Part shown: positions 13,097 to 61,479 of the stretch, one piece after another | Layout of the letters: the number at the start of each line of letters is the position of its first letter | How positions within the stretch are numbered: the stretch's first letter is position 1 | Source of the DNA: Phycisphaerales bacterium JB040 | GTDB lineage: Bacteria; Planctomycetota; Phycisphaerae; Phycisphaerales; UBA1924 | Direction: 5' to 3' | Length of the DNA stretch: 64,000 nt | Assembly: GCA_043101615.1 (NCBI GenBank) | Contig: JBICID010000101.1 | Coordinates: 16,206 to 80,205, forward strand | Made by a program: the position numbers and the translations under genes | The notes under the pieces: generated by a model | The model's database searches: none | Told to the model about the DNA's origin: nothing | Seen by the model: only the letters and a program-made list of their open reading frames with translations

Positions 13097-13124
13097 TGGC
13101 TTTCCTTGTTGCTACGCTGGATCC

Positions 13125-15932: not shown

Positions 15933-15953
15933 GGGGGAGGGAGGGGGGCGTTC

Positions 15954-28462: not shown

Positions 28463-29281
28463 TCAGCAGCCGGCGAGGAAGGCGTTGACGAAGGCCCCGA
28501 TGTCGCCGTTGTCGATGATGCCGTCCACGGTGAAGTCGGCCGCCGGGTCCTGGGCCAGGAAGAGTGTGATGAAGGCACCGATATCGCCGTTGTCGACCAC
28601 GCCGTCGGCGTTCAGGTCCGGCGGGCAGGGCGGCTCGATCGGGCCGACCGAGATCGCGAACCCGACGGTGGAGAAGCTCGGCCCCTCGGCGACGATCCTC
28701 GCGGAGCGGATCACCGGGGCGGGAAAGTGCACGCCCTTGAAGTCGAGAAACAGCTTCAGATGGATGATGTCCGCGGTGTAGAAGTCCGCGAGCAGGGCCC
28801 CCTCGCCGTTCGGTGCGTCGAAGACCTGGATGCGGTCGCGGTCGTTCGGCGTCAGGCTGGTCGCGAACGGCCCGAGGATGGAGGTGCTGCCGAACGCGGT
28901 CAGTGGCTCGGAGAAGTTGATGATCAGGTCACCGGTGGTCGGTGACGGGTTGGCGTAGTCCCCGTCGAAGTCTCCCGGGTCGACCATCGGGTCGGGGGTG
29001 ATCCGGAAGGAGTCCCAGGTGCTCGGGGTGTAATTGATGCAGCCCGAGGGGAAGCGGTGATCGATGGTGAATTCGCTGTAGTAGGACGCCGTCACGATGT
29101 GCCCGGCGCCCGTGTCGATGGGGATCGAGTCGCGATAGTGCACGCCGCACGGTGAGGGGTTGTCGATGTCGTAAAAGACGGCGTACGGGATGTCTGAGAA
29201 GGAATCGACCACCGTGCCCTGGGCGCGGGCGTGGTTGTTGGTGATCACGACGACGGCCAAACCCGACACGAGCGTGCGCAT
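28463..29281 (-). CDS. secreted hypothetical protein with a C-terminal 54-aa GC-ending dockerin-like module
   Basis: Signal-like MRTLVSGLAVVVITNNHARAQG, with GGAGG upstream. The C-terminus is CPPDLNADGVVDNGDIGAFITLFLAQDPAADFTVDGIIDNGDIGAFVNAFLAGC-stop. Confidence 0.85.
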   Translation of the reverse strand: MRTLVSGLAVVVITNNHARAQGTVVDSFSDIPYAVFYDIDNPSPCGVHYRDSIPIDTGAGHIVTASYYSEFTIDHRFPSGCINYTPSTWDSFRITPDPMVDPGDFDGDYANPSPTTGDLIINFSEPLTAFGSTSILGPFATSLTPNDRDRIQVFDAPNGEGALLADFYTADIIHLKLFLDFKGVHFPAPVIRSARIVAEGPSFSTVGFAISVGPIEPPCPPDLNADGVVDNGDIGAFITLFLAQDPAADFTVDGIIDNGDIGAFVNAFLAGC

Positions 29282-29415
29282 GGGAAGCCTCCGGATGGAT
29301 CGCGCGAGTCTACCCATCCGTGCGCTCGCTTCCACCGGGTGCGCGGGGCTCGCCGTTCGAAAAACACGCGACGGACGGCGGGCGGACGGGGCCGATACGG
29401 TCGCGGTTCGTGTGT

Positions 29416-30834
29416 TCAGCAGCCGGCGAGGTAGGCGGTGACGAAGGCGCCGATGTCGCCGTTGTCGAGGATGCCGTCGCCGGTGAAGTCGGCCGCGAGG
29501 TCCGAGTCGAGGAAGAGCGTGACGAAGGCGTTCAGGTCGCCGTTGTCGAGCACGCCGTCGGCATTGATGTCGGGCGTGCAGACGGTCTCGCACGAGTCGG
29601 CGACGCCGTTGTTGTTGTCGTCCACGGGGTTGGCCGAGACGATGCGTCGCAGCTCGCCGCTGCCGTAGAGCGCCATGTACATCTCGCCGGCGAGGTCCTC
29701 GCCGAAGGAGGTCAGCTCGAACCCGCCCGGCCCGATCTGGTTGGTGAGGTTCTGGAAGTCGGTGCGCGAGACGCCGTCGGTCTTGAGTGCCCAGACCTGT
29801 CCGGTGCAGTAGTCGCCGAAGAGGTACCAGCCGTCCAGCTCGGGCGCGGCGCACCCGCGGTAGACGTACCCGCCGGTGATCGACGCGCACACCTTGCCGA
29901 CGTGCGTGTAGTCGTGAACAGGCTCGGTCAGCGTCGACGGGTCGGGGCAGTTGCCGGTGTTGAAGTCGAAGGTGCCCTCGCGGCAGCGCCAGCCGTAGTT
30001 CTCGCCGCCCACGCTGGACGCGCCCTGAAAGTTGACCTCCTCGCGCGCGTTCTGCCCGACGTCGGCGATGTACAGGTCGCCGGTCTGGCGGTCGAAGCTG
30101 TTCCGCCACGGGTTGCGCAGCCCGTAGGCCCAGATCTCGTCGAGCCCGCTCACGCCCACGAACGGGTTGGACGACGGGACAGCGTAGTTGCGCGCGTTGT
30201 CGGCTGGGAAGTCGTCCCCGTCCACGTCGATCCGCAGCATCTTGCCCAGCAGCGTCTCGAGGCTCTGCCCGTTGCCGACGTCCGGGTTGTGCCCGGCGCC
30301 CGTGTCCCCGCTGCCGCCCCCGTCGCCCGAGGCTATGTACAGGTACCCGTCCGGGCCGAAACCGAGCCACCCCCCGTTGTGGTTCGCCTGCGGCTGCCCG
30401 ATCCGCAGCAGCTCGCGACGGGACGAGGCGTCGGCCCGCGTCGCGGTCAGCGGGTCCCCGTCGGCGGCGTACTCGGCCAGCACCGACGTCCCCGAGAGCT
30501 CGGTGTGGTAGATGTAGAACAGCCCGTTCTGCTCGAACTGCGGGTGGAAGGCCAGCCCCAGCAGCCCCTGCTCGCTGACGGTGCTGGTGCTCGAGGCGAT
30601 GTCGAGGTAGCTCGCCCCCTGCACCTGCCCGCTCGCCAGGTCCACCAGCCGGATCCGCCCCGCCTTCTCGAGCACGTACAGGCGGCCCGCGTCCCCGGGC
30701 GCGTGCGTCACGAACGTCGGAGAGCTCAGGCCCGTCGCGACGGTCTCGGTCGACAGGTCGAGCTGGGCCGACGCGAGCGACGAAGAAACGGCGAGCGCGG
30801 AAGCGGCGAGCACGGTGCTGGGTCTGCGGGGCAT
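29416..30834 (-). CDS. PQQ-dependent (soluble) sugar dehydrogenase-like beta-propeller with a C-terminal GC-ending dockerin-like module
   Basis: GLLGLAFHP, NHNGGWLGFGPDGYLYIASGDGG, GLRNPWRNSFD and the LYIADVGQN blocks are typical of the sorbosone/glucose dehydrogenase family. Signal-like MPRRPSTVLAASALAVSSSLASAQ. The C-terminus is CTPDINADGVLDNGDLNAFVTLFLDSDLAADFTGDGILDNGDIGAFVTAYLAGC. Confidence 0.88.
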   Translation of the reverse strand: MPRRPSTVLAASALAVSSSLASAQLDLSTETVATGLSSPTFVTHAPGDAGRLYVLEKAGRIRLVDLASGQVQGASYLDIASSTSTVSEQGLLGLAFHPQFEQNGLFYIYHTELSGTSVLAEYAADGDPLTATRADASSRRELLRIGQPQANHNGGWLGFGPDGYLYIASGDGGGSGDTGAGHNPDVGNGQSLETLLGKMLRIDVDGDDFPADNARNYAVPSSNPFVGVSGLDEIWAYGLRNPWRNSFDRQTGDLYIADVGQNAREEVNFQGASSVGGENYGWRCREGTFDFNTGNCPDPSTLTEPVHDYTHVGKVCASITGGYVYRGCAAPELDGWYLFGDYCTGQVWALKTDGVSRTDFQNLTNQIGPGGFELTSFGEDLAGEMYMALYGSGELRRIVSANPVDDNNNGVADSCETVCTPDINADGVLDNGDLNAFVTLFLDSDLAADFTGDGILDNGDIGAFVTAYLAGC

Positions 30835-30925
30835 GGTCCCTCCCTTGGAATGGTGCCAGCCCAAGGCTACACGACAACCCGGACCGCTCCAAGGGAATTC
30901 GCAAACCGGAGGTGCGTGTCCGTGC

Positions 30926-32722
30926 TCAGCACCCCGCCAGGAAGCGCTCCACGAACGCGTGTATGTCGCCCTGGTCCACCACGCTGTCGCCGTTCACGTC
31001 GGCCCAGCGCGAGCCGGACAGGAACTCGCTCACGAAGCCGCTGATGTCGCCCAGGTCGAGCACGCCGTCGCCGGTGAACTCGGCCGGGCAGAAGTAGGCG
31101 TTGGGTGTGGCGAGCACGAGCGCCTCGGTGGTGTCCTCAAAGCGGACGGAGAGCAGGACCTGCTTGTGCGCGTTGGCGGAGGCCGGTCGCCCGTGGTGGC
31201 GTCCGTCCGACGGCGTGACGAACACGGCGTCGACGATCCGCACGTCGCCGGGGCCGACCTCCAGCGCGTCGCCGTGACGGAGGATGAGGCGCGGGCGCGG
31301 GGCGGCGTCGGACATCACCGCGGCGTACCCCTCGCCCAGGTCGTCCTCCACCCAGCACCACGCCGCGACGTGCCCGTCTCCGAGCGCCGCCATCGGCGCG
31401 AACGTGAACAGGTCCCAGTTGGCGACGAGGCCGGCGAGGGGCTCGAGGTCGATCGGGACACGGCGCTCGTTCATCAGCCAGCGTTCGTCTCCGCCCTGCG
31501 TGCGCTCGATCAGCCCGTCCATGAGGTCGAGCACCTCGTCGTCGGCCTGGACCATGATGAGCACGTTCCCGTCCTCGTCGGTCTGGTAGTCGCCGATGTG
31601 CTTCACCTCGTCGCCGGGAGCGCCCCCGGGCACCGGGTCGCCCTCCTGCTTGAGCACGCTCAGCACCCCGGCGTTCCACTCCAGCAGCACGTAGGAGCCG
31701 AAGTTGGTCGCCTCTTCCCGGGCCGCGGCGAAGAAGACGATGCGCTGCTCGCCCGCGAACAGCGGGCGGTTGGTCGCGCTCTGGCCCTGCGGGTAGGTCA
31801 GGCTCTGCAGGTAGCGGGGCGGGTCGTACCCGGGCACCTCGTCCCCGCTGATCGCGACCGGGTTCCCGCCCGTGGCCGGGCGGCTGGTGAAGATGCCCGA
31901 GCCCGGCGCGGTCCCGCCGTCCTCCAGCAGGCGAGCGTCCCACAGCAGGCGCCCGTCGCCGCTGGCGCTCAGCGTCCCGAACGCGTGGTAGTTCCAGGCC
32001 GTTTCGCTTCCGAACACCGGGGCCGCGTCGCCGGTCCGGGCCAGCTCCTCGCCGAACTGCCCGTCCGCGGTCACCAGGGCGATCGCGTCCGAGCCGTCGG
32101 CGTAGTTGACGATGACCCCGAGCGAGCCGTCCCGCCCGTACACGACCGGGTCGTTGCGCCCGCGGATGTTCCTGTCCAGGTCCTCGCCCGGGGCGATCCC
32201 GGTCGGCGGGTTCCACGGGTCGAACAGCACGGACGGCTGGTTGTCGTCGGTGCGCCGGAAGACGACGCGGCGCTGGTCGCTCTGGTCCGGGTTGGAGACG
32301 TACGCCGCGAACGCCGCGTCCGCGTCGGACTCGCTGAAGAACAGGTCGAACGGGAAGGTCCGGTCGAGCAGCATGACCTCGCCGGCGACCAGCCCCGGCG
32401 CGGTGTCGCCCTGCTGCGCGATCGCGGAGAGGGCGAGCGGCGCGTTCGGATCGCCCCGCATCAGCACCGCCTCGCCCGCCTGCTCGGTCAGCACGGGGTC
32501 GAAGAGCTGCGCGCCGAACATCGCCCCGGACCGGTCCGAGAGTTCCGGCAGGTGGTAGGACCGCACCCGGTCCACGCCGACGCTCTCGAAATCGAAGCCG
32601 GGGACGGGCGCGCCCTCGGGCAGCCGGGTCGAGGCCACCACGTCCAGGTCGAACGCACGCGGCGGGGGCGTCGCCATCGCCTGGCCCACCACACACGCCA
32701 CGACCGCTGTCTGTGTCCGCAT
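30926..32722 (-). CDS. secreted hypothetical protein (598 aa) with a C-terminal GC-ending dockerin-like module
   Basis: Start at MRTQTAVVACVVGQAMA, with GGGAGGG upstream. The C-terminus is CPAEFTGDGVLDLGDISGFVSEFLSGSRWADVNGDSVVDQGDIHAFVERFLAGC. Confidence 0.8.
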   Translation of the reverse strand: MRTQTAVVACVVGQAMATPPPRAFDLDVVASTRLPEGAPVPGFDFESVGVDRVRSYHLPELSDRSGAMFGAQLFDPVLTEQAGEAVLMRGDPNAPLALSAIAQQGDTAPGLVAGEVMLLDRTFPFDLFFSESDADAAFAAYVSNPDQSDQRRVVFRRTDDNQPSVLFDPWNPPTGIAPGEDLDRNIRGRNDPVVYGRDGSLGVIVNYADGSDAIALVTADGQFGEELARTGDAAPVFGSETAWNYHAFGTLSASGDGRLLWDARLLEDGGTAPGSGIFTSRPATGGNPVAISGDEVPGYDPPRYLQSLTYPQGQSATNRPLFAGEQRIVFFAAAREEATNFGSYVLLEWNAGVLSVLKQEGDPVPGGAPGDEVKHIGDYQTDEDGNVLIMVQADDEVLDLMDGLIERTQGGDERWLMNERRVPIDLEPLAGLVANWDLFTFAPMAALGDGHVAAWCWVEDDLGEGYAAVMSDAAPRPRLILRHGDALEVGPGDVRIVDAVFVTPSDGRHHGRPASANAHKQVLLSVRFEDTTEALVLATPNAYFCPAEFTGDGVLDLGDISGFVSEFLSGSRWADVNGDSVVDQGDIHAFVERFLAGC

Positions 32723-32806
32723 CGCCGAACCCTCCCGGTGCTCCGGACCCATGCTACCGGCGACGGCGGGGCGTGCCAACGGAATTCCGGAGCGGTCGAG
32801 GCGATT

Positions 32807-37144: not shown

Positions 37145-37972
37145 TCAGCCCCCGGGGTCGTACCCCCACGCGTCGCAGGCGTCCCGGTAGTCCGGATTCG
37201 CCAGGCACGCCTCCAGCAGCCCCTCGGGACGCTCCCGGGGCTCCAGGGGCGCGATCGCACGCCGTCGGTTCCCGCGGCTGTCGGCGGTGTCGCCCGTGAC
37301 GTGCCGGTTGTCGGCCCACCCCGACGCCCACCCCTCGTCGAATCCGAGCTCCAGCGTCTGGCACATGGCCCGCAGCGAGGCGCCCGGGTCCGCGCAGAAA
37401 TCCTCATACTTCAGGAGTGTGTGCGCGCTCGGGTCGGCGAGGCGCCCCGCGATGGCCGCCGTCTCGCGCGCGTACGCCGCGCAGGCGGCGAGGTGGGCCT
37501 CCAGCGTCAACGCACGCATCGTCTCGATCTTCCGGATGCTCAGCCAGTGGTCGATCGGGTGACGCACCGTGTCCACCACCCGCAGCGAGAACCGTTCTTC
37601 GAGCGCCCGCGTGGCAACGGGTTCCTGCGTGGGGGTGGCGAAGGGGACCCCGGCGAAGTCCAGGTGGGTCCACTCGCGCAGCAGCAGGCGCGAGGCGCGC
37701 GCCTCGGCCCGGACGTTGAGCTGGGCGATGATGTCCGCGTAGCCCGTCCCGCGTGTGAGCCACGCCTTGCACTCCTGGGGCGTGGTGAGCGCGTGCCACT
37801 CGCGGGCCTGCCCGAGGACGTTGGACCAGCGGCCCAGGGCCTCGGGGTGGGTCTCGCTGAGCAGCATCACGCCGTTCATGCACCCGAGGCACTTGGAGAT
37901 CACGGTCCCCCCGGTGCGTGCGAGGTGGCGTACGAGGCGGAGGGTCGGTCTGGAACCGGGGGCGGGGGGCAC
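37145..37972 (-). CDS. sulfotransferase-like protein (putative GTG start)
   Basis: HLARTGGTVISKCL resembles the H-x-P-K-T-GGT PAPS-binding loop of family-2 sulfotransferases. No in-frame ATG precedes it, so I propose the GTG at 37970-37972. The rest of the 1147-aa ORF-track entry is antisense to the GH57 gene. Confidence 0.5.
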   Translation of the reverse strand: MPPAPGSRPTLRLVRHLARTGGTVISKCLGCMNGVMLLSETHPEALGRWSNVLGQAREWHALTTPQECKAWLTRGTGYADIIAQLNVRAEARASRLLLREWTHLDFAGVPFATPTQEPVATRALEERFSLRVVDTVRHPIDHWLSIRKIETMRALTLEAHLAACAAYARETAAIAGRLADPSAHTLLKYEDFCADPGASLRAMCQTLELGFDEGWASGWADNRHVTGDTADSRGNRRRAIAPLEPRERPEGLLEACLANPDYRDACDAWGYDPGG

Positions 37973-38128
37973 GAGCCCACGGTACGCCGCGTGGGCACGC
38001 GCGTCCGATTCCGGACCCCGAGACCCTGTTCGGGGCGTGCAATTCCTGCGAAAAGTCTTTCGCGATTCGGCCTCGCGCGATACCCTCTCAACGGCACGCA
38101 ACACGTCGTGCCGAGGGAGTCTTGAGCC

Positions 38129-41062
38129 ATGTCGATCCGTCCGAAGCGGATGCTGACCCTCGCGGTCGGCTGTGCCCTGTCCGCAAACACGCTCGCCGGT
38201 GAGGGCGAGGCCGGCCCGGAACAGGCCCGCGCCGGCGGGCCGGTGCAGGTGTCGTTCCTGTGGCACATGCACCAGCCGATCTACGTCCCGTACGTCGACC
38301 CGATGACGGCCAACGGGTTCTTCTCGTTCTCGGTGACCGACGTGCACAACTCGCGGTTCGGCCCGTACACGACGTGGCCGGCCGACGCGGTCGGGATCGG
38401 CGTCTCGATGCCCTACCTGGGTGCCCAGGTCAGCTTCTCCGGCTCGCTGATGGAGAACCTGAACAGCATGGAGTCCGCCGGCATCAACGGCGGGATGTGG
38501 AACAACTGGAGCGGGACGTACGCCGGGGCCCAGTCCATGCTCACCGCGGGGGGCAACCGTCGCCTCGAGCTGGTCGGCTTCGGGTACCACCACCCGCTGA
38601 TGCCGCTGATCGACGAGAAGTCGATCCGCATGCAGGTGCGCCTGCACCGGATGATCGCGGGCGCGGAGATGGGCGCCCCGGCGAGCCGCGGGATCTTCCC
38701 GCCCGAGACCGCGTTCAGCACGAGGATCATCCCGGCGCTGGTGGCCGAGGGCATCGAGTGGGTCATGGTGGACAACATCCACTTCGACCGCGCCAGCCAG
38801 AACTACCCGTGGAACAGCGGCACCAGCATCATCCCGCCCAACCGGGCCGACCAGATCAATCCCGACCCGGCGTCCAACGGCGGGCGGTGGGTGCAGCTCA
38901 ACAACCTCTGGGCCCCCAGCCCGGTCTCCGTGCCCTTCGGCTACCAGCCCGCGTACACGCAGCACGTGGACCCGGAGACCGGCACCGTCACCCAGATGAT
39001 CGCCGTCCCCGCGGCCCGGTACGAGGGCAACGAGGACGGGCGGGGCGGCTACGGGGCCTTCCTGTACGACCAGGTGATGGACGCCTACGTCAACGACTCG
39101 CTCACCGCCGACCGCCCCATGCTCGTGCTGCTGCACCACGACGGCGACAACTTCGGCGGCGGCAGCGAGGCGTACTACCACCACAACTTCCAGAACATGG
39201 TCAACTGGGCCAGCGCCGACCCGGACTACGACGTCACGACCGTCAACGACTACCTCGACCGCTTCCCCGTCCCGGCCAACGCGCTCATCCACATCGAGGA
39301 CGGCTCCTGGGCCGGGGCCGACGCCGGCGACCCCGAGTTCAAGAAGTGGCTCGGCGGGGACGTGAGCGCGGGGGCGGTCAGCCCGGACATCAACTCGTGG
39401 GCCGCCCTCGTCTCGGCCCGCAACACGCTGGCCACCGCGGAGCAGGTCTTCGGGGCGGTCGACGTCACCAACGCCTCGCACATGTCCAACGTCATGCAGG
39501 GCGTCGGCACCGACGTGCAGCGGTCCTGGCACTGGATGCTCGTGGGTCAGGCCAGCGACTACTGGTACTGGGACGGCACCGAGGTGTGGGACTCCAACCC
39601 GACCCGGGCCGCCAACCAGGTGCACGCGATCGCCGGGACGGCCCTGGCCGCCGCCTTCTTCCAGGACCAGACCCCGCCGACGGTCTTCGTCCCGCAGCGC
39701 GAGCCGTACAACCCGGGCGCGTTCGAGTGGAACCAGACGCCCGAGCCGTCCGACTTCGAGGTCTGGACGCTCATCGACGACTGGAGCGGCGTGGCCGACG
39801 CGACGCTCAAATGGCGGATCGACGCCGACGGCGCCAACCCGCTGAGTTCGGTCCAGAACGAGACCTACGCCGGCGGGCCCGAGGTCGGCCCGTGGCAGAG
39901 CGTGCCGATGACGGCGAACGCGGTGCCGACCCCGGCGGGCGTCCTCGCCGCGACCGACAAGGCGGTCCGCTACGGGGGGACGATCGCGGGCCAGCAGAAC
40001 GTGCTGATCGACTACTACGTCGAGGCGACCGACACCGCCGGGAACACGGCGCGATCCGAGATCATGCACGTCTGGGTCGGCGACGGCGCGACCGGGGGCA
40101 CGGGCAGCGCGGTCACGCTGCTGCCCGAGACGCCCGTCGCCGGGCAGCCCGTCACCGTCACCTACGACCCGGCGGGCGGCCCGATCGCGGGGGCGTCCAC
40201 GGTCGTGCTGCACTACGGCTTCAACGGCTGGACCGGCGTCTCCGACGTCGCGATGAGCGGGCCCGACACCGAGGGGCTGTTCAGCGTCACCGTCCCCGTC
40301 CCCTCCACCGCCACCGAGTTCGACTTCGTCTTCAACAACGGCGCGGGCGTCTGGGACAACAACAACGGGCAGGACTGGATCATCCCCGTCAGCGGCGGTG
40401 AGCCCGGACAGCAGTGGGAGATCGACGGTGCCCTCGACACCGAGGCGCAGCAGCTCGCCACCTCGTCCGGCGTCACCCTCTGGGCCGGCCTGATCGACAG
40501 CACGCTCTACCTCGCGACCGAGCCCGCCGGCGCCGGCAACGACCGCTTCCTGTTCCTGGCCGAGACCCCCGGTGCACCCGCCGCGCACCCGTGGGCCAAG
40601 TCCGGCACCGTCGCCCAGTGGGACGCCTACATCGGCAACGAGGCCGACAACGGCTGGGCGGGCTGGTTCGGCGGCGCGGGTGCCACGCTCGCCAGCGGCG
40701 GCGTGCTCGAGACCACCGTGGACCTGGTCGCCATGTTCGGCTCCGTGCCCGAGTCCGTCGCGGTCGCCGTGGGCAGCTACGCGTCGCCCGACGGCGGGGC
40801 GCTGGTCGCCCAGTCCCCCGCGGGCAACGCCGACGGGAACATCGACGCCTCCGAATACCTCGTCATCGACCTCTGCTCGCTCACGCCGGAGGGCTGCTGC
40901 CCGGCCGACGTGAACGGCGACGGCGTGCTGGACAACGGCGACATCGGGGCGTTCGTCACGCTCTTCCTCGCGGGCGACCCGGCCACGGACTTCAACGCCG
41001 ACGGCATCCTCGACAACGGGGATATCGGGGCGTTCGTCACACTTTTCCTCGCCGGGTGCTGA
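38129..41062 (+). CDS. secreted GH57 alpha-glucan-active enzyme with a CBM25-like starch-binding domain and a C-terminal GC-ending dockerin-like module
   Basis: All five GH57 regions are visible: WHMHQPIY, LELVGFGYHHPLMPL, IFPPETAFS, LLHHDGDNFGG and ASDYWYWDG. The CBM25-like segment is VVLHYGFNGW...FDFVFNNGAGVWDNNNGQDW. Signal-like MSIRPKRMLTLAVGCALSANTLAG. The C-terminus is CPADVNGDGVLDNGDIGAFVTLFLAGDPATDFNADGILDNGDIGAFVTLFLAGC. Confidence 0.88.
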   Translation: MSIRPKRMLTLAVGCALSANTLAGEGEAGPEQARAGGPVQVSFLWHMHQPIYVPYVDPMTANGFFSFSVTDVHNSRFGPYTTWPADAVGIGVSMPYLGAQVSFSGSLMENLNSMESAGINGGMWNNWSGTYAGAQSMLTAGGNRRLELVGFGYHHPLMPLIDEKSIRMQVRLHRMIAGAEMGAPASRGIFPPETAFSTRIIPALVAEGIEWVMVDNIHFDRASQNYPWNSGTSIIPPNRADQINPDPASNGGRWVQLNNLWAPSPVSVPFGYQPAYTQHVDPETGTVTQMIAVPAARYEGNEDGRGGYGAFLYDQVMDAYVNDSLTADRPMLVLLHHDGDNFGGGSEAYYHHNFQNMVNWASADPDYDVTTVNDYLDRFPVPANALIHIEDGSWAGADAGDPEFKKWLGGDVSAGAVSPDINSWAALVSARNTLATAEQVFGAVDVTNASHMSNVMQGVGTDVQRSWHWMLVGQASDYWYWDGTEVWDSNPTRAANQVHAIAGTALAAAFFQDQTPPTVFVPQREPYNPGAFEWNQTPEPSDFEVWTLIDDWSGVADATLKWRIDADGANPLSSVQNETYAGGPEVGPWQSVPMTANAVPTPAGVLAATDKAVRYGGTIAGQQNVLIDYYVEATDTAGNTARSEIMHVWVGDGATGGTGSAVTLLPETPVAGQPVTVTYDPAGGPIAGASTVVLHYGFNGWTGVSDVAMSGPDTEGLFSVTVPVPSTATEFDFVFNNGAGVWDNNNGQDWIIPVSGGEPGQQWEIDGALDTEAQQLATSSGVTLWAGLIDSTLYLATEPAGAGNDRFLFLAETPGAPAAHPWAKSGTVAQWDAYIGNEADNGWAGWFGGAGATLASGGVLETTVDLVAMFGSVPESVAVAVGSYASPDGGALVAQSPAGNADGNIDASEYLVIDLCSLTPEGCCPADVNGDGVLDNGDIGAFVTLFLAGDPATDFNADGILDNGDIGAFVTLFLAGC

Positions 41063-41115
41063 CCCGCACGCCCGCCTCCCGAACCGACCGACCGCACGCC
41101 GCGTAAGGACTCACC

Positions 41116-43464
41116 ATGATCTTTTTCAAGCCCGCCCTGTTCCTCGCCTGCTCGCTCGGCGCGTCCGGCGCCCTGGGTGCCGACGCGGACAACAACGTCG
41201 AGTGGAACGGCCTCTCCCACGTGGTCCACCACGACCTGCGCCCGCTCGTCCCGCTCAGCGGCGATGATGTCGTGGTCGAGTTCCAGGCCTACCGGGGCGA
41301 CCTGACCGCCGCCAACGTGCTGCGGACCGTCAACGGCGGCACCACCTCGCACGCGGCGTCGATCGTCGGCCAGCGGGGGCCGTACGACCTGTGGCGGGCC
41401 ACGCTCCCGGGCACCACGCAGAACCAGCTCGCTTACGTCATCGAGGCCATCGACGGGACCGATACCGACTACCTCGGGGCACGCGCCGACCGCCCGCACG
41501 AGTGGGCGGTGAGCGACAACGCCCCCGCCAGCCCCTTCCTGCTCGACTTCACCACGCTCAGCCACGCCCGCAACGGCGCGACGCCGACCTCAAGCGGCGT
41601 GGTCTTCAAGGTCTGGGCCCCCACCAGCGCGACGGCGCACGTCCGCGGCCAGTTCAACAGCTGGTCCACCACGCCCATGGCCAAGCACGGCGAGCACTTC
41701 GTCGCCCACGTCCCCAACGCCTCGCCGGGGCAGATGTACAAGTTCTACTTCAACAACTCGGTCTGGAACACGGACCCTCACGCCGCGCTGCTCAACGAGA
41801 GCGACAACACCAACGCGGTGATCCAGGACCCGCTGGCCTACGAGTGGCGGCACGACGGCTTCACCGCGGTCCCGCGCGACCGGATGGTGATCTACCAGCT
41901 GCACGTGGGCTCGTTCTCCGGCCTGAACGACCCGCTCGGCCCGGCCCCCACGCCCAGCCGCTACTACGACGTCGCCCTGCGGGCCGATCATCTGGCCGAG
42001 CTGGGCGTCAACGCGGTGATGGTGAACCCGATCAACATGTTCCCGGGCGATTTCTCGGGCGGGTACAACCCGACCTCGATGTTCGCGTGGGAGGGCAAGC
42101 TCGGCACGCCCGACCAGCTCAAGTTCATGGTGGACGAGCTGCACGAGCGCGGCATCGCGGTCATCCTCGACGTGGTGTGGAACCACTTCGACTCGGGGGC
42201 CAACTTCCTGTGGAACTACAACGGGTCGCAGCTCTACTTCGACTCGCCGGCGCAGGACACGCCCTGGGGCGCCCAGGCCGACTTCGACGCCGCGGGCGTG
42301 TACGACTACTTCCTGGACTCGGTGCACCACGTGCTGGGCGAGTTCCGCATGGACGGCTACCGCCAGGACGCGGTGATGTACATGACCGACTCGGCCCTGA
42401 CCGGCCAGTGGGGCGTGGGGCAGGACCTGGTCCGCGACATGAACGACCTGATCGACCGGCGCTACGCCGACGGGCTGGCCATCGCGGAGATGTACATCGA
42501 CTCGTCCTGGGTGACCAACCCGAACTTCGGCATCGCGTTCGACGCGCAGTACCACAACGAGTTCAAGGAGGCCGTGCGGTCGGCGACGTTCGGCGCCGCG
42601 TTCGGATCGCCCGACGTGTCGCGCGTCGCCGGCGTCATGGACGGGCAGGGCCCCGGCGTCGAGGGCTCGTTCGTGATGAACTACTTCGAGCTGCACGACG
42701 ACGCGTGGCCCCTCAACGGGCACGAGCGGGCCGTCAAACAGATCGACACCACCTTCCCCCACGACGACCAGTACGCCCGCGGACGCACCACGCTCGCCCA
42801 CGGGCTCGTGCTCACCAGCCGAGGCATCCCCGCGATCCTGTACGGGAGCGAGTGGCTCGAGTCCAACGGCTTCGAGAGCAAGATCGACTGGAGCCGCAGG
42901 GGCGCGAACGACGGCACCTTCGAGTACTTCAAGGACCTGATCGCGCTGCGGACGACCGAGCCCTCGCTCTTCGCCGACGCCCCGATGCGGGTCTCGCATC
43001 TGAGCGAGGGCAACGACGTCTTCGCCATGCACCGCTGGTCCGACGACGGGCGAGACGTGGTGGTGGTCGCCAACTACTCCGACACCGACTGGGGGGCCTA
43101 CGACCTCGGGTTGCCCCAGCCGGGCCAGTGGGACGTGCTGGTCGATTCCCAGTTCAGCGCGTACGACGGCTCGGGCTACGCAGACGCCCAGACCGGCGTC
43201 ACCGCCAGCGGCCCCGCCCGCGACGGCTTCGCCCAGTCCGCCACGCTGCGGATCCCGGCCCGCTCCCTGCTGGTGATGGCCCCCCCGACCGCCGACCCCT
43301 GCCCGGGCGACGTCAACGGGGACGGCGTGCTGGACAACGGGGATATCGGGGCGTTCGTGCAGCTCTTCCTCGCCGGCGACCCCGCGTCCGACTTCAACGG
43401 GGACGGGGTGCTGGACAACGGCGATATCGGGGCCTTCGTGACGGTCTTTCTCGCGGGGTGCTGA
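41116..43464 (+). CDS. secreted GH13 alpha-amylase-family enzyme (CBM48-like N-domain) with a C-terminal GC-ending dockerin-like module
   Basis: VVFKVWAPTSATAHVRGQFNSW (CBM48/E-set-like). GH13 regions are ILDVVWNHF, FRMDGYRQDAV, IAEMY and FELHDD. Signal-like MIFFKPALFLACSLGASGALGA. The C-terminus is CPGDVNGDGVLDNGDIGAFVQLFLAGDPASDFNGDGVLDNGDIGAFVTVFLAGC. Confidence 0.9.
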   Translation: MIFFKPALFLACSLGASGALGADADNNVEWNGLSHVVHHDLRPLVPLSGDDVVVEFQAYRGDLTAANVLRTVNGGTTSHAASIVGQRGPYDLWRATLPGTTQNQLAYVIEAIDGTDTDYLGARADRPHEWAVSDNAPASPFLLDFTTLSHARNGATPTSSGVVFKVWAPTSATAHVRGQFNSWSTTPMAKHGEHFVAHVPNASPGQMYKFYFNNSVWNTDPHAALLNESDNTNAVIQDPLAYEWRHDGFTAVPRDRMVIYQLHVGSFSGLNDPLGPAPTPSRYYDVALRADHLAELGVNAVMVNPINMFPGDFSGGYNPTSMFAWEGKLGTPDQLKFMVDELHERGIAVILDVVWNHFDSGANFLWNYNGSQLYFDSPAQDTPWGAQADFDAAGVYDYFLDSVHHVLGEFRMDGYRQDAVMYMTDSALTGQWGVGQDLVRDMNDLIDRRYADGLAIAEMYIDSSWVTNPNFGIAFDAQYHNEFKEAVRSATFGAAFGSPDVSRVAGVMDGQGPGVEGSFVMNYFELHDDAWPLNGHERAVKQIDTTFPHDDQYARGRTTLAHGLVLTSRGIPAILYGSEWLESNGFESKIDWSRRGANDGTFEYFKDLIALRTTEPSLFADAPMRVSHLSEGNDVFAMHRWSDDGRDVVVVANYSDTDWGAYDLGLPQPGQWDVLVDSQFSAYDGSGYADAQTGVTASGPARDGFAQSATLRIPARSLLVMAPPTADPCPGDVNGDGVLDNGDIGAFVQLFLAGDPASDFNGDGVLDNGDIGAFVTVFLAGC

Positions 43465-43568
43465 GCACGGCCAAACCGGAAAATCTGGAGCGATCACGGG
43501 ATTCCGGGAACCGGTAGACCGAAACGCACCAATGTGGTGGTGTCGCAACTCCGTTCGGAGGCACCGCC

Positions 43569-46058
43569 ATGACCCGCTTGTCCGTGACTGTATTCCTCGT
43601 TGGGCTCGCCCTGATCCGCTGCGTGTCGGAGGCCCAGGTCTGTGAGCCGAGTTTCGAGCTGCCGAATCTGACTCACGTGGAATTCACAGAAAAGTCGGTC
43701 GCGCTGGCCGATTTCAACGGCGACGGGCGTGAGGACGCGCTCCTCGCGGAGCTCGGGCCCATGATCCGCGTGTACTTCGCGGGCGAGTCCGGGGCCTACG
43801 ACGGGGGCGTCGTCTCGATCGACACGGGCCTGCTTCAGAGCCAAATGGCCATCCCGGCGGACATGAACTCGGACGGACATCTGGACGTGCTCGGCATGGC
43901 GAGTGTCGGCTACCAGGTCTCGGACCCTCGTCAGTTGCAGTACTTCCCGGGAGATGGTGCGGGCGGATTCGGGCCGGGCGTCCTCCTCCCCACCACGCAG
44001 TTCTTCACGCTCGGCACCGTGGCACGGGTCGGGGACTTCGACGGCAACGGACGCACCGACGTGGTCTTCCGCACCGGGTCATACAATCAGAAGTACTACC
44101 GGGTGGTGTTCCAGAACACCGACGGCACGTTTGACCAGCCCGTCTCTCTGCCCGCGCCCGGCGTGGCGCCCCCGCGCGTGGCGGATTTCAACGAGGACGG
44201 GCTCGACGACATCGTGTACGAGCACGACAGGGACATGTCCATCGTGTTCGGGCGGGCAGACCGTGTGCTGACGGACCGTCTCGATCTCGGCCCGATCCTG
44301 CCTCCCACAAACGTTCAGCCGCCTTATGGCCCTGCCTACTTCGGAGATCCGTGGATCGGGGACTTCAACGCCGACGGGCACGCCGATCTCTTTCTGAGCA
44401 GGCCCGATACCTTCGGCCCCATGAAGCGTGTTGTCCTGCTCGGTGACGGTGCGGGCTCGATGGTCCTGGGCGACAAGGGGTTTATCCCGACCGGGAGCGT
44501 GATCAGTGGTCTGGCCGACATCGACCGCGACGGCGCAGACGAGCTCATCGCCACATACTTCGGCGACAGCTACCTGGTCGAGTTCGACGGCGACGAGATT
44601 GTCTCGTCCGCCTGGTACTACACCGAGGGACACACGTCCATGATCGCGCTCACCGAGATCGGAAACGGACCCGGGCCCGAGGTCTTCTTGGCGTTCACCG
44701 ACCCCGCAGGAATCCTCGCGGCCGAACTGATGAGCGACCACTTGCCGGCACTGCCGGAGCGAAACGTGTACGGCGCCGGGCACCAGCTCGATCGGGCCGT
44801 CAGGATTGACGCCGACGCCGATGGCTACTCCGAGCTCTTCGCGGAGGCGGGATACAACAACCTCTTCCACGTCCGGCGCGGCACCCAAGGGGGTGGCTTC
44901 GAGAGAGCCACTCAGACCTTTTTGACAGACGAGCGGGGAGAGCTGACGACGTGGACCGTTGGCGAATTCACCGGAGACGGAGTCCCGGATGTGGCTCTCT
45001 CGATGATCCCGTGCGACGGGTGCGAGCCGGAGGAAGCCCCGCACGAGCTGATGGTGCATCCGGGAGGAGTCGGTGCCGAGGGGTACTCCGTCTCGGACTC
45101 CCAGATCCGAAGCGGGGATTCCGGTGTCGACAGTCACGCGTTCGTCTCGATGGCGCCGCTGGATCTCGACGGCGACGGCGTGGACGACCTCGTCGCGACC
45201 CGCTATCTCACCGGGGACGGGCCGTACCTGCTCCGCAACGACGGAACGGGCGTGTTCACGCAGACCACCCTCCCCCCGCCGGACGGGGCCCTCAACCCGT
45301 TCCTCATCGGCGCGTTCGACGCCACCGGGGACGCACTCCCCGATCTGGTCGTCAACGCCGGGAGCAGCATCTACGTCTACCGGGGCACGCACGGACCGGG
45401 CGGGCTCGCGTTCCAGCCGCCCGACTCGCCCGCGGCGCCGGGGTTCTTCACGACCCTCACGGGCGTGTCCTACCCGCGCACGGCGGACCTGAACGGGGAC
45501 GGGCGGACCGACTTCGCGGTCGCCGGTTCGAGCGCCGGGCTCGCCGAGCTTCGCGTCTGGACCAACAACTCCGACGGCACGTTCACGCTCACCGTCCATC
45601 CCACGCAGTCGCCCTCCCCGTCGGGCGTGACCCCAACGCTCGCGCTGGGTGACCTGAACCACGATTCGCACCTGGACGCCGTCGTCGTGGGGGATGTTTC
45701 ACTGACGCTGCTGTCCGGGGACGGGTCCGGTGGATTCGTCGCCGGGACGCCGCAGAGCGTGTTCAAGTCATGCTCCAACTGCGATCCCTTCACGGTGCTC
45801 ATCACCGATGTCAACGGGGACGGGTGGAACGAGCTTCTCTCTGAAGACATATTCGAGCTCGTCGTCTGGCGTGATACCTGTCTGCCGGACCCCTGCCCCG
45901 CCGACGTCAACGCCGACGGCGTGCTCGACAACGCTGACATCGGGGCCTTCGTCAGGCTGTACCTGGGCGCCGACACGGGCGCGGACTTCAACGGGGACGG
46001 CGTCATCGACAGCGCCGATATCGGGGCCTTTGTGAGCGTGTTCCTGGCCGGCTGCTGA
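43569..46058 (+). CDS. secreted FG-GAP/VCBS-repeat protein with a C-terminal GC-ending dockerin-like module
   Basis: Repeated D-x-(N/D)-x-D-G-x-x-D loops in a propeller-like context (FNGDGREDAL, MNSDGHLDVL, GDFDGNGRTDVV, FNEDGLDDIV, FNADGHADLF, LDGDGVDDLV, LNGDGRTDFA). GGAGG precedes the ATG. The C-terminus is CPADVNADGVLDNADIGAFVRLYLGADTGADFNGDGVIDSADIGAFVSVFLAGC. Confidence 0.88.
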   Translation: MTRLSVTVFLVGLALIRCVSEAQVCEPSFELPNLTHVEFTEKSVALADFNGDGREDALLAELGPMIRVYFAGESGAYDGGVVSIDTGLLQSQMAIPADMNSDGHLDVLGMASVGYQVSDPRQLQYFPGDGAGGFGPGVLLPTTQFFTLGTVARVGDFDGNGRTDVVFRTGSYNQKYYRVVFQNTDGTFDQPVSLPAPGVAPPRVADFNEDGLDDIVYEHDRDMSIVFGRADRVLTDRLDLGPILPPTNVQPPYGPAYFGDPWIGDFNADGHADLFLSRPDTFGPMKRVVLLGDGAGSMVLGDKGFIPTGSVISGLADIDRDGADELIATYFGDSYLVEFDGDEIVSSAWYYTEGHTSMIALTEIGNGPGPEVFLAFTDPAGILAAELMSDHLPALPERNVYGAGHQLDRAVRIDADADGYSELFAEAGYNNLFHVRRGTQGGGFERATQTFLTDERGELTTWTVGEFTGDGVPDVALSMIPCDGCEPEEAPHELMVHPGGVGAEGYSVSDSQIRSGDSGVDSHAFVSMAPLDLDGDGVDDLVATRYLTGDGPYLLRNDGTGVFTQTTLPPPDGALNPFLIGAFDATGDALPDLVVNAGSSIYVYRGTHGPGGLAFQPPDSPAAPGFFTTLTGVSYPRTADLNGDGRTDFAVAGSSAGLAELRVWTNNSDGTFTLTVHPTQSPSPSGVTPTLALGDLNHDSHLDAVVVGDVSLTLLSGDGSGGFVAGTPQSVFKSCSNCDPFTVLITDVNGDGWNELLSEDIFELVVWRDTCLPDPCPADVNADGVLDNADIGAFVRLYLGADTGADFNGDGVIDSADIGAFVSVFLAGC

Positions 46059-46084: not shown

Positions 46085-47092
<1,008 letters not shown>

Positions 47093-47104: not shown

Positions 47105-47731
47105 ATGACCGACGAAGAACGACGCCGCCTCGCCACCGACACCGACAACGGCCTGCTGCTCATCATCTCGGGCCCCAGCGGCGTGGGCAAAACCACCATC
47201 ACACGCGGCGTCGAGCGTTCCATCGCCGACTCGGTCTTCTCCGTCTCCGTCACCACACGCACCCCCACCCCCGCCGACGTCGAGGGCGTGGACTACCGCT
47301 TCATCACCGACGACGAGTTCAACCGCCTCATCGAGACCGACGCCCTGCTCGAGCACGCCGACGTCTTCGGCAAGCGCTACGGCACCCGCCGGGCCTGGGT
47401 GGACGAGCAGCTCGCACGCGGGCGACTGGTCATCCTCGAGATCGACGTCGAGGGCGCCCGCCAGGTCAAGGCCAAGATGCCCGAGGCCTACGCCATCTTC
47501 ATCGACCCGCCCAACGAGCAGACCCTCCTCGAACGCCTGCGCGCCCGCCAGCGGGAGGGAGAGGACCAGATCCAGAAACGCTTCGCCGAGGCCACACGCG
47601 AGATGGCCCGCGCCCGCGAACTCCAGATCTACGATGCCTTCATCGTCAACGACCAGCTCGAGCGAGCCATCTCCGAGGCCGTGGCACTCGTCCGCAGCGC
47701 CCGCGATCGGGCGGGCGCCCGGCGCGCCTGA
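47105..47731 (+). CDS. gmk: guanylate kinase
   Basis: ISGPSGVGKTTI P-loop, then SVTTRTPTPADVEGVDYRF. GAGGAG lies upstream. Confidence 0.95.
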   Translation: MTDEERRRLATDTDNGLLLIISGPSGVGKTTITRGVERSIADSVFSVSVTTRTPTPADVEGVDYRFITDDEFNRLIETDALLEHADVFGKRYGTRRAWVDEQLARGRLVILEIDVEGARQVKAKMPEAYAIFIDPPNEQTLLERLRARQREGEDQIQKRFAEATREMARARELQIYDAFIVNDQLERAISEAVALVRSARDRAGARRA

Positions 47732-53501: not shown

Positions 53502-53534
53502 CGGGCCGCGTGTGTGATGCCGCGGCCCGTTTTT
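53502..53534 (+). terminator. plus-strand rho-independent terminator at the end of a roughly 430-bp non-coding region
   Basis: cgggccgcg (53502-53510) pairs perfectly with cgcggcccg (53521-53529) around a 10-nt loop, followed by TTTTT (53530-53534). The T-run overlaps the TAA stop of the convergent sulfotransferase gene. Confidence 0.7.
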
Positions 53535-54360
53535 AGTCGTACCCGTGTTGCGCCATGGCCTCGGCGAACGCGCCCTCGAACGCGTCGTCCAGGCCGGCCC
53601 CCCCCTTGATCGCCTCGTCCAGCCGGCGACCGCTCCGGCCCGAGTGCATGAACAGGGCGCCCTTGCGTGCTCCCGCGGCGTCGCCCACGAACAGGCGCTT
53701 GTCCAGGCTCTTCTTCTTCGGGTCGTTCTTCTCGCGGACCTCCAGGGCCCGCATCGCGTCGAACGAGCCGGCCCTCACCGCGCCAGCCACGGCCTCGTCG
53801 CTCGCCTCGATGCCCAGGAACGCCAGCACCCCGCGCAGCACGCCGGGCGTGTCCGCCTGCAGGTCCTCGTAGCGGACGCGGTGCACCGGGAAGCCGGGCG
53901 CGCTCCAGCTCGACGCGTGCCCGGCCCACGTCCCGAAGCCGCGCTGGGCGAAGCCCGGATCACCGCCCGCGCGGATGAACAGCTCGGCGTAGGCCCGGTC
54001 GCTGAGCTGGCCCGGGGTCGTGCCGGCCAGGCGGAGGTAGTTCAGACCGGAGAGCAGCACGTCGCGCGGGTGACGGATGACGTGCACGGCCCCCCACGTG
54101 CGGTCCAGGTGCGGGTGGCGCTCGGAGAGTTCGAAGTGGGTCTTCATCACGAGACGACCCCCGTACCCCCCGCCCGAGGCGGCCCGGGCCTCGGCCCCGG
54201 CGTCGGTGGGCATGGCACGGTGGACGTCCGGGATGCTGGCCGAGACCTCGACGCTCTGCGCGATGCTCCCGTGCACCGCGGCGTGCAGCAGGAACCGCAG
54301 CCAGGTGTTCCCGCTCTTGGGGTAGGAGGCCAGCCAGACGATCTCGGCGCTGCTCATCAC
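53533..54360 (-). CDS. sulfotransferase domain protein (PAPS-dependent)
   Basis: 5'-PSB loop SYPKSGNTWLRFLL and 3'-PB-like VIRHPRDVLLSG. Confidence 0.88.
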   Translation of the reverse strand: MMSSAEIVWLASYPKSGNTWLRFLLHAAVHGSIAQSVEVSASIPDVHRAMPTDAGAEARAASGGGYGGRLVMKTHFELSERHPHLDRTWGAVHVIRHPRDVLLSGLNYLRLAGTTPGQLSDRAYAELFIRAGGDPGFAQRGFGTWAGHASSWSAPGFPVHRVRYEDLQADTPGVLRGVLAFLGIEASDEAVAGAVRAGSFDAMRALEVREKNDPKKKSLDKRLFVGDAAGARKGALFMHSGRSGRRLDEAIKGGAGLDDAFEGAFAEAMAQHGYD

Positions 54361-60267: not shown

Positions 60268-61287
60268 TCAGCACCCCGCCAGGAAGATCTGCACGAACGC
60301 CCCGATGTCGCCGTTGTCCAGGATGCCGTCGTTGGTGAAGTCCGCCCGCAGGCTCCCCGCGAGGAAGAGCGACACGAACGCCCCGATGTCGCCGTTGTCC
60401 AGCACGCCGTCGTTGTTGATGTCGCCCGGGCAGCTCTGCACCAGCGGCGCGAGCGTCAGCCCGCCGATCGTGTCGGGGTGGTCCACCTGCCCGCCCGAGG
60501 ACCACGCGAGCGGGTTGACGGACAGATCCATCTCGATCTGGTGCCGGCTGAACGCCGCGAAGCTCGGGTCGGAGTTCTGCACCATGTAGGAGTACACCGT
60601 GTTCGTCGCCGGGTCGTGCGTGATGTCGGTCAGGAAGAGCGGGATGGTCCCGAGCTGTGCGAGGCCGGAGGTGTCGAGATTGGTGGTCGTGAGCTGGAGC
60701 GTGTTGAAGTTGGTCCCGTTCACGTCGATCGCGAGGAACTGCCCCGTCAGCGTGTTGAACGCGGAGCTGTCGTTGTCGCGGTCGTTGATCGCGAGCAGGG
60801 ACGTCGCCCCGGTGTCCGGGTCGACGCCGATGATCTCGGACGAGAGGAACAGCTCACCGAACAGGTCGAAGAAGACGTCGTCGGTGTTGGGCACCAGGTA
60901 CAGGTCCCGCCCCGGGTCGTAGGCGATCGAGTCGTACAGCTGCGTCACCGCGGTGTTGCCCAGCGAGAACAGCACGCTGCCGGCCCCGGTCGCCCGGTCG
61001 ATCTCCGCCAGGTACTGGTCCCAGGTGTCGTCGGCGGTGCGGTAGACAAGGTACAGGGTGACCAGCCGGTCCCGGGCCGAGTCGTAGCACAGCTCGCCCA
61101 CGCCGTACGGCGAGCCCTGCGGACGGACGGGCGAGGACAGCCCGTGCGCCCCGACCACGGTGACGTCGGACGGATCCGAGGCGTCCCAACGGACCAGGTC
61201 GGTCCGCGTCAGCCCGTAGACCGTCTGGGCCGAGGCGACGGAGGACAGGGCGGCGAGTGCGGCAACGGCTGCGGCGTGCGTGTTCAT
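60268..61287 (-). CDS. secreted hypothetical protein (339 aa) with a C-terminal GC-ending dockerin-like module
   Basis: Signal-like MNTHAAAVAALAALSSVASAQ. The C-terminus is CPGDINNDGVLDNGDIGAFVSLFLAGSLRADFTNDGILDNGDIGAFVQIFLAGC-stop. Confidence 0.85.
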   Translation of the reverse strand: MNTHAAAVAALAALSSVASAQTVYGLTRTDLVRWDASDPSDVTVVGAHGLSSPVRPQGSPYGVGELCYDSARDRLVTLYLVYRTADDTWDQYLAEIDRATGAGSVLFSLGNTAVTQLYDSIAYDPGRDLYLVPNTDDVFFDLFGELFLSSEIIGVDPDTGATSLLAINDRDNDSSAFNTLTGQFLAIDVNGTNFNTLQLTTTNLDTSGLAQLGTIPLFLTDITHDPATNTVYSYMVQNSDPSFAAFSRHQIEMDLSVNPLAWSSGGQVDHPDTIGGLTLAPLVQSCPGDINNDGVLDNGDIGAFVSLFLAGSLRADFTNDGILDNGDIGAFVQIFLAGC

Positions 61288-61479
61288 GGGGATGCTTCCG
61301 GGGGATTGGCGCACCTGACGCGGGGCGCTCCGCCTCTGTTCTACCAGACTCCGTGCGTAGAACGCCACAAAGTTGTGCAAAATCCTCCCCGATTCCGACG
61401 AAACGGGGCCCGCCGGGCCCCGAACGGGTTGCTGCGACGCGGCGGGATCGGGCGCCGGGAGGGCGGCGCGCCGGGGGGG

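Follow-up and report, generated by a model that had tools for sequence, protein, structure and literature searches.

The question raised by this locus is whether two alpha-glucan enzymes and a repeat protein, encoded side by side and ending in the same kind of tail, form one starch-degrading assembly or are separate exported proteins with a common tag. The locus lies in a 64,000-nucleotide stretch of DNA from Phycisphaerales bacterium JB040, which we analyzed as a whole and refer to here as the window, and it comprises genes for a glycoside hydrolase family 57 (GH57) enzyme, a GH13 enzyme, and an FG-GAP/VCBS protein with beta-propeller repeats (Table 1). An initial annotation of this DNA had proposed that the three form a functional unit, an "amylosome-like" assembly. 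We favor another picture, to which we assign a probability of roughly 0.6: two independent exported alpha-glucan enzymes, each carrying a generic envelope-retention tag. The tail belongs to an ordinary, already catalogued tagging system of a marine-type planctomycete, and we found no proof of a dedicated starch machine.

The shared tail is a GC-type dockerin

All three proteins end in a tail of 54 residues, in which a Cys-Pro pair is followed by a predicted EF-hand-like Ca2+ loop and helix, a linker, a second such loop and helix, and Gly-Cys (C-P-x-D-x-N-x-D-G-V-L-D-N-G-D-I-G-A-F-V, then the second loop and helix, ending in F-L-A-G-C). Each tail matches the NCBIfam model NF041540 (dockerin_GC) with 39.7 to 44.4 bits against a cut-off of 29, lies at the extreme C-terminus, and keeps the upstream Cys and terminal GC. 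The tails thus have the C-terminal site, the two Ca-loop/helix repeats, and the bracketing residues of the proteins that NCBI calls "GC-type dockerin domain-anchored protein," a name already in use for several GH57 orthologs. All seven modules in the window score above the cut-off; at 54 residues, compared with 67 positions in the profile, those of the window are a short-linker variant of this computationally defined family. The disulfide-bracketed form is not new, being already curated as NF041540. In the literature searched, we found no paper using the term "GC-type dockerin."

Each of the three proteins had been said to carry a signal peptide and the same 54-residue module. Signal-peptide-like N-termini were found in all three, read from the sequence as a charged, then a hydrophobic, then an Ala-rich segment, and the modules belong to one family, but they are not identical: pairwise identity is 70 to 89%, with the GH13 and GH57 modules the same at 89% of amino acid and 83% of nucleotide positions. 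Among the seven window modules, C4 and G56-C57 are invariant. Both Ca2+ loops have Asp at positions 1, 5, 9, and 12 and either Asn or Thr at position 3, the one exception being a Glu that opens the first loop of a single module; this is a ligand pattern from which Ca2+ binding by the tail is predicted. The upstream and terminal Cys usually co-occur in the tails of GH57 and GH13 orthologs, and from this co-occurrence we infer that the Cys near the start of the module and the C-terminal Cys form a disulfide clasp.

The AlphaFold2 (AF2) model of the module (pLDDT of 93.7) has a loop-helix, a linker, and a second loop-helix, with two helices in all. When this model was compared with solved structures by Foldseek, the top five matches were all dockerins (among them 2vn5, 4dh2, 2y3n, and 2ozn), with TM scores of 0.55 to 0.60 and E values of 0.7 to 2.2, the weakness of which follows from the shortness of the domain. 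Searched against PDB sequences, a profile of the window modules gave 2y3n first (E value of 0.006), then the dockerins 2jnk, 6kg9, and 8ajy, and then EF-hand proteins; both the PDB sequence and the fold searches used a 57-residue module. The predicted fold of the tail matches solved dockerins best.

Some Cys-bracketed tails of GH57 orthologs that end in GCP (P0027, P0029, P0005, and P0028) do not have the canonical Ca2+ ligands, e.g., ADLAAPLGQLSFADISTF, and part of the GC-type family may be Ca2+ independent.

The tail is a general tag of the Phycisphaerales exoproteome

The window contains at least seven tagged genes, all encoding proteins with signal-peptide-like N-termini. When the window-module profile was searched against 1.84 billion cluster representatives, it matched 11,875 proteins at an E value of ≤1e-3 and 625 at ≤1e-10, almost all of them at the extreme C-terminus of proteins 60 to 1,300 residues long. 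Matches in species-representative genomes were overwhelmingly from Phycisphaerales, Phycisphaeraceae, and other Planctomycetota, and a single related metagenome-assembled genome (MAG) had at least 35 tagged loci.

The proteins that carry the tail are diverse. Pfam analysis of 89 carriers found LVIVD and FG-GAP propellers, reprolysin M12B, M1, GH66, GH10, PA14, and LTD domains, among others. Thirty tagged proteins of the related MAG included M10, M14, and M64 peptidases, reprolysin, an SASA esterase, alpha/beta-hydrolases, a nuclease/phosphatase, and glucose/sorbosone dehydrogenase (GSDH), FG-GAP, and LVIVD proteins; only 1 of the 30 had an Alpha-amylase domain. The cargo does not fall into one substrate class but spans peptidases, esterases, nucleases, dehydrogenases, beta-propellers, and assorted glycoside hydrolases. 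The tail marks the C-termini of Phycisphaerales exoproteins in general, dozens of them in each genome, and is not starch specific.

The FG-GAP gene occupies a variable slot

The FG-GAP protein matches Pfam FG-GAP_3 with 161.6 bits over nine stretches. We found no ortholog of it among 5.8 billion proteins: the identical match came from JB040 only, and the next best was 26% identical. The gene is also present on a 3.3-kb Logan contig, and its G+C content at third codon positions (GC3, 0.855) is the lowest among 18 window genes.

The closest relative of the locus is a JGI contig, L001, whose GH57 enzyme is 88% identical to that of the window. There, the gene order is sulfotransferase, GH57, GH13, a 724-residue LVIVD-like protein, a 932-residue protein, a 280-residue HpiC1-like protein, pyrB, and gmk; all five genes between the sulfotransferase gene and pyrB are GC-dockerin tagged, and no FG-GAP gene is present. 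DNA homology between the two spans the end of the GH13 gene and the spacer behind it, reaches through the codons for the FG-GAP signal peptide, is lost over the FG-GAP body, and resumes at the codons CCC-TGC-CCC-GCC-GAC (P-C-P-A-D) that open the dockerin module, from where it runs on into pyrB and gmk (window positions 43486-43660 and 45891-46058 match L001 positions 15429-15599 and 21463-21630). Within the FG-GAP gene, only the export signal and the tail are thus conserved, and the body between them reads as cargo that can be exchanged. The gene is an orphan of this strain in a variable slot, not a conserved partner of the enzymes. The pattern suggests that the export-signal and tail codons act as recombination boundaries for cargo swapping.

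At positions ~15513-15670, L001 has a short open reading frame (ORF) with homology to the signal peptide of the FG-GAP protein (MARRPVSVVSVGFAQIIIVVGAQACEPSF…), which reaches a TGA after ~50 codons. The 724-residue LVIVD-like gene, as called, begins in a different frame and overlaps this ORF, an arrangement that reflects either a frameshift or the relic of a cargo swap.

The window and L001 also differ at a second site. The gene for a 272-residue tagged protein is absent from L001, and the indel (28463-29581, minus strand) is flanked by a tandem pair of dockerin modules on the same strand (28466-28627 and 29419-29580), which share 84% nucleotide identity, the highest value for any paralogous pair. 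Recombination between these two modules would give the exact L001 arrangement. The DUF7453 gene of the window is absent from L001 as well.

Recent gene conversion among the modules was considered and rejected: orthologous modules of the window and L001 are 81 to 90% identical in nucleotide sequence and paralogous ones 64 to 84%, with no clear concerted evolution. Judged from these sequences, the near-identity of the modules appears to reflect strong conservation.

The enzyme genes are unlinked in most relatives, and a dedicated complex is improbable

Among the relatives compared, GH57 and GH13 are adjacent in L001 only. In the more distant L002, L004, and L005, the GH57 gene stands alone, with no GH13 gene within 8 to 10 kb and the GH13 ortholog elsewhere on the same chromosome or contig. 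The order GH57-GH13-FG-GAP does not recur in relatives.

In L002 (a Phycisphaeraceae MAG, CP060234.1), the gene directly after GH57 (12917-16300) encodes a 1,127-residue protein with a signal peptide and the C-terminus …GGTRF; it had no match in Pfam. We take such a Phe-terminated end to be typical of outer-membrane beta-barrels, which would make the protein a possible transport partner.

In Ruminococcus bromii, GH13 amylases are assembled into an amylosome by cohesin-dockerin pairs (PMC4611034). By analogy, the GH57, GH13, and FG-GAP proteins would dock through their tails on a cohesin scaffoldin and form a dedicated alpha-glucan machine at the cell surface. The shared features are real: alpha-glucan enzymes that both have export signals and starch-binding modules, a tail with a predicted dockerin-type fold, short gaps between adjacent genes, and an NF041540 score above the cut-off for all three proteins, which supplies the dockerin side of such a complex. 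Cohesin proteins have also been reported in some Phycisphaerae (PMC6461901; PMC11557425). However, the tag is found on dozens of unrelated proteins per genome and is not enriched on starch enzymes, in contrast to the substrate-focused cargo of R. bromii. Pfam found no cohesin, and no scaffoldin of the R. bromii kind, in the 25 window proteins scanned, and the families listed for 119 tagged cargo proteins (89 plus 30) included none either. The FG-GAP protein, the orphan of the variable slot, lacks a cohesin and carries a dockerin of its own, and the GH57 and GH13 genes lie apart in other Phycisphaerae. This system further differs from that of R. bromii in its Gram-negative-type envelope, in the involvement of GH57, and in the lack of a conserved gene cluster. 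We consider an amylosome of this kind quite improbable, and these comparisons support neither it nor the trio as a functional unit.

Contrary to what had been supposed, a dockerin complex in Planctomycetota would also not be a new idea. For Phycisphaerae (Nemodlikiaceae), a cohesin/dockerin "planctosome" for peptidases has been put forward on in silico grounds (Andrei et al. 2019, PMC6461901), and a scaffoldin with two cohesins is on record for Limihaloglobus sulfuriphilus (PMC11557425). Our tagged proteins come from the same class of bacteria and are likewise dockerin-bearing, noncellulase exoenzymes that include peptidases of the reprolysin M12B and M14 families. The planctosome model differs in that it has identified cohesin proteins and an LTD anchor, whereas here the tail is Cys bracketed and GC ending and our scans found no cohesin.

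The GH57 and GH13 enzymes are widespread in Phycisphaerae

The GH57 protein consists of a signal-peptide-like N-terminus, a catalytic domain, beta-sandwiches, a predicted CBM25/53 module, another beta-sandwich, and the GC-type dockerin. Pfam Glyco_hydro_57 (PF03065) covers residues 42 to 229 with 62 bits (cut-off of 21.2), and five GH57 motifs are found in order: HMHQP (46-50), RLELV (145-149), FPPETA (190-195), HHDGDNFG (336-343), and SDYWYW (476-481). Across 121 orthologs, E193, D338, H48-Q49-P50, and S476/D477/W479-W481 are invariant. In the full-length AF2 model (pLDDT of 86.8), the conserved domain begins at about residue 38 and residues 1 to 34 are disordered, which fits the expected signal peptide. 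The best Foldseek matches were the Thermococcus litoralis 4-alpha-glucanotransferase (1k1x; E value of 4e-15) and the S. marinus amylopullulanase (7e1y; 8e-13), along with 2b5d, 3p0b, and 9jlq; AmyC, branching enzymes, and the A. aeolicus amylopullulanase were among the solved matches. The family match, the five regions, the catalytic Glu and Asp, and the predicted fold all identify the protein as a GH57 member.

The same four features are shared with characterized GH57 enzymes (1k1w/1k1x, the S. marinus and A. aeolicus amylopullulanases, AmyC, and branching enzymes). Its sequence is nonetheless distant from those of the solved enzymes, with a best PDB sequence E value of 1.4e-3 and Foldseek alignments that are 8 to 13% identical. 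At 977 residues, it is larger than Thermotoga maritima AmyC and the other characterized members and adds the CBM25/53 module, beta-sandwiches, and dockerin. It also differs from the characterized set in its source, a mesophile-type, high-G+C planctomycete.

Two observations concern the ends of this protein. Extra cysteines just before the module, at residues 915 to 927 (40871-40909; L-C-x(4-6)-C-C-P-A-D), are shared with most orthologs, which suggests a second small disulfide loop beside the bracket. A lipoprotein reading of the N-terminus (LAVGC15) was considered and neither adopted nor dismissed; LAVGC15 is not conserved among orthologs, many of which have no Cys in the signal peptide.

In the GH13 protein, a signal peptide and an N-terminal domain are followed by CBM48, the catalytic barrel, Alpha-amylase_C, and the GC-type dockerin. 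Pfam assigned 52.4 bits to Alpha-amylase (PF00128) and 50.8 bits to Alpha-amylase_C (PF02806), and D418, E458, D528, H357, and H527 are invariant across 120 orthologs. These matches and the predicted catalytic triad D418/E458/D528 place the protein in GH13. Its nearest relatives by PDB sequence are GlgB (9u77), where the alignment spans regions I and II, and TreZ (1eha), both at E values of ~1e-28. We did not assign a subfamily, because the scores against the TreZ and GlgB NCBIfam equivalogs are far below their cut-offs; NCBI names the 100% identical JB040 protein "alpha-amylase family glycosyl hydrolase."

The description of these proteins in the initial annotation, as a GH57 enzyme with five signature regions and a CBM25-like domain and a GH13 enzyme with a CBM48-like N-domain, was borne out. 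The starch-binding module of GH57 scores above the Pfam thresholds for both CBM53 (46.3 bits; cut-off of 27.6) and CBM_25 (33.3 bits; cut-off of 27.3) and matches the CBM25 of a Bacillus halodurans amylase (2c3v; E value of 1e-5), and CBM48 is likewise above its cut-off (Table 1). We found more than 1,491 homologs of GH57, of which the best 120 are full length, 54 to 88% identical, and spread over Phycisphaerae, Pirellulales, and Planctomycetia, and 914 homologs of GH13. Both enzymes are widespread and are therefore core enzymes of Phycisphaerae. Sequence and predicted structure thus identify the two as genuine alpha-glucan enzymes of families GH57 and GH13, each with a predicted starch-binding module, an export signal, and a tail of the dockerin type; their substrate specificity is likewise a prediction.

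What the tail may do

The C-termini of orthologs bear on the function of the tail. About 69 of the best 120 GH57 orthologs have a Cys in the last four residues; others in this set have classical Cys-free dockerin pairs, and 8 are of a Pirellulales type with a dockerin-like repeat and a PEP-CTERM. Of the best 120 GH13 orthologs, 99 have Cys-bracketed tails, and ~13, from outside Planctomycetota, have instead the C-terminal domains (CTDs) of the type IX secretion system (T9SS) (PF18962/PF13860). The module at this site thus changes from one group of orthologs to another, which marks the C-terminus of these enzymes as a slot for anchoring or sorting that each lineage fills in its own way. A GC-type dockerin that keeps exported proteins at the envelope would be in line with this. 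In the reading that we favor, the GH57-CBM25/53 and CBM48-GH13 enzymes would be exported via Sec and would act independently, their genes being adjacent in this lineage. The tail would hold exported proteins at the cell envelope, in a Ca2+-dependent manner, by docking to a receptor, and the FG-GAP protein would be one more tagged, strain-specific surface protein from a recombination-prone slot.

The same ortholog data could be taken to mean that the tail is a signal read by an export or attachment machinery, like the T9SS CTD or PEP-CTERM/exosortase, and not a reversible docking domain; processing or covalent attachment might then take place at the terminal Cys. The tail resembles those systems in its site on orthologs, in its cargo of exoenzymes and repeat proteins, and in its many copies per genome. 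Its strict extreme-C-terminal position, the near-invariant terminal GC, and NCBI's wording, "domain-anchored protein," also fit a sorting signal. Unlike the T9SS CTD (PF18962) and PEP-CTERM, however, the tail has a predicted helical, Ca-binding dockerin fold, modeled with confidence, which favors a binding domain, and it has neither a transmembrane helix nor a cleavage motif beyond that domain and no known processing machinery. The Cys is not always the last residue, since many members end in GCP, GCG, or GCS, and it is usually paired with an upstream Cys, as an internal disulfide would need. The window yielded no candidate for a sorting enzyme. We regard a sorting signal as unlikely.

Surface display itself can be questioned. 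Planctomycetes can import polysaccharides into the periplasm, and the enzymes might be tethered by their tails within the enlarged planctomycetal periplasm and degrade imported glucan or the cell's own. The signals are of the Sec type with no feature for translocation across the outer membrane, the nearest relatives of GH13 are GlgB, TreZ, and debranching-type enzymes, and a disulfide-stabilized tail suits an oxidizing compartment. Yet starch in granular or insoluble form is the usual ligand of CBM25/53 modules, the other proteins with this tag are typical exoenzymes, and the T9SS domains on GH13 orthologs of other phyla send proteins across the outer membrane. A purely periplasmic role is, in our estimate, also not likely.

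Envelope retention by docking thus remains the reading that we prefer, and several points weigh against it. Docking to the putative receptor is deduced from the predicted fold. Taken one by one, the sequence and structure matches between this short module and solved dockerins are nonsignificant (E values of 0.006 to 2), and Pfam Dockerin_1 had no match to the window modules at an E value of ≤0.01. The cohesin check covered this window and ~150 kb of related loci. The GH57 and GH13 genes are probably cotranscribed, as suggested by the short gaps and by intergenic gaps free of promoter- and terminator-like sites.

An extended form of this reading, which we hold to be doubtful, would make the GC-type dockerin a universal Ca2+-dependent plug that places dozens of exoenzymes on a noncanonical outer-membrane receptor, a "planctosome" of a Gram-negative envelope in which GH57 and GH13 are the starch cargo and the signal-peptide and dockerin codons are the boundaries for swapping cargo.

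As they stand, the window proteins are added members of the known families GH57, GH13, FG-GAP, and NF041540, and annotating the locus is routine: it encodes two alpha-glucan enzymes of the planctomycetal core and an orphan repeat protein, each with a catalogued C-terminal domain. The GH57-CBM25/53 family of ~975 residues, conserved across Planctomycetota and uncharacterized, will be of interest to specialists in carbohydrate-active enzymes. More broadly, the locus raises the question of which partners are bound by the GC-type dockerins of Phycisphaerae, of which there are thousands, and whether they constitute a surface display system in a Gram-negative-type envelope.

Layout of the locus and neighboring genes

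The positions of the genes and modules are given in Table 1. The ORFs confirmed that the three genes are codirectional, all on the plus strand, with gaps of 53 nt (GH57-GH13) and 104 nt (GH13-FG-GAP). The pyrB and gmk genes, both identified above NCBIfam equivalog cut-offs, follow after 26 and 12 nt, respectively. The pairing of these genes with secreted enzymes had been called unusual; the adjacency stands, and a functional tie to the enzymes does not, since L001 has the same conserved packing, with pyrB at the same position 25 nt behind a different GC-dockerin gene. They are housekeeping genes packed directly downstream, as in this closest relative. A promoter and terminator scan of the region from 36.5 to 48.5 kb found no promoter-like site and one terminator-like hairpin, fewer than expected from shuffled sequence, which lies within the FG-GAP ORF; the scan is uninformative on operon structure.

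TABLE 1 Genes, modules, and tagged proteins of the JB040 window (positions are those of the window)
Feature	Position	Strand	Remarks
272-aa secreted protein, no family assigned, GC-type dockerin tail	28463..29281	-	Identical to P0126
Glucose/sorbosone-dehydrogenase-like protein, GC-type dockerin tail	29416..30864	-	L001 ortholog has Pfam GSDH and the same tail
DUF7453 protein, GC-type dockerin tail	30926..32779	-	PF24251, 61.8 bits
GH57 alpha-glucan enzyme gene	38129..41062	+	977 aa
GH57 catalytic region	38240..39658	+	~aa 38-510; candidate nucleophile E193, acid/base D338
CBM25/CBM53 starch-binding module (predicted)	40148..40390	+	aa 674-754
GC-type dockerin of GH57	40898..41059	+	aa 924-977; NF041540, 42.2 bits
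GH13 alpha-glucan enzyme gene	41116..43464	+	782 aa
CBM48 module of GH13 (predicted)	41575..41760	+	aa 154-215; PF02922, 37.8 bits (cut-off, 22.4)
GC-type dockerin of GH13	43300..43461	+	aa 729-782; NF041540, 44.4 bits
FG-GAP/VCBS beta-propeller-repeat gene	43569..46058	+	829 aa, with GC-type dockerin
GC-type dockerin of FG-GAP protein	45894..46055	+	NF041540, 39.7 bits; right edge of variable slot
pyrB (aspartate carbamoyltransferase catalytic subunit)	46085..47092	+	NF002032, 329 bits (cut-off, 263)
gmk (guanylate kinase)	47105..47731	+	TIGR03263, 200.5 bits (cut-off, 160.45)
~340-370-aa secreted protein, no family assigned, GC-type dockerin tail	60268..61380	-	From the window module set

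The window neighborhood is rich in envelope-glycan genes. Two sulfotransferase-family genes are present (37145-38000 and 53533-54360, both on the minus strand), one of them divergent from GH57; they were assigned as Sulfotransfer_3 via the L001 ortholog and as Sulfotransfer_1/3 by Pfam. The window also encodes GT2, GT4, and GT41-TPR glycosyltransferases, a UDP-GlcNAc 2-epimerase, and a probable GDP-mannose dehydratase.

A gene for a Ser/Thr protein kinase with a TPR C-terminal part (57591-60155, plus strand) has one in-frame TAG at 58593-58595. This stop falls inside the kinase domain (…AEQRRT*LNSLTGLLKRDLDWVVMRCLEKD…), and it may point to a pseudogene, to an error in the assembly, or to read-through at this codon.

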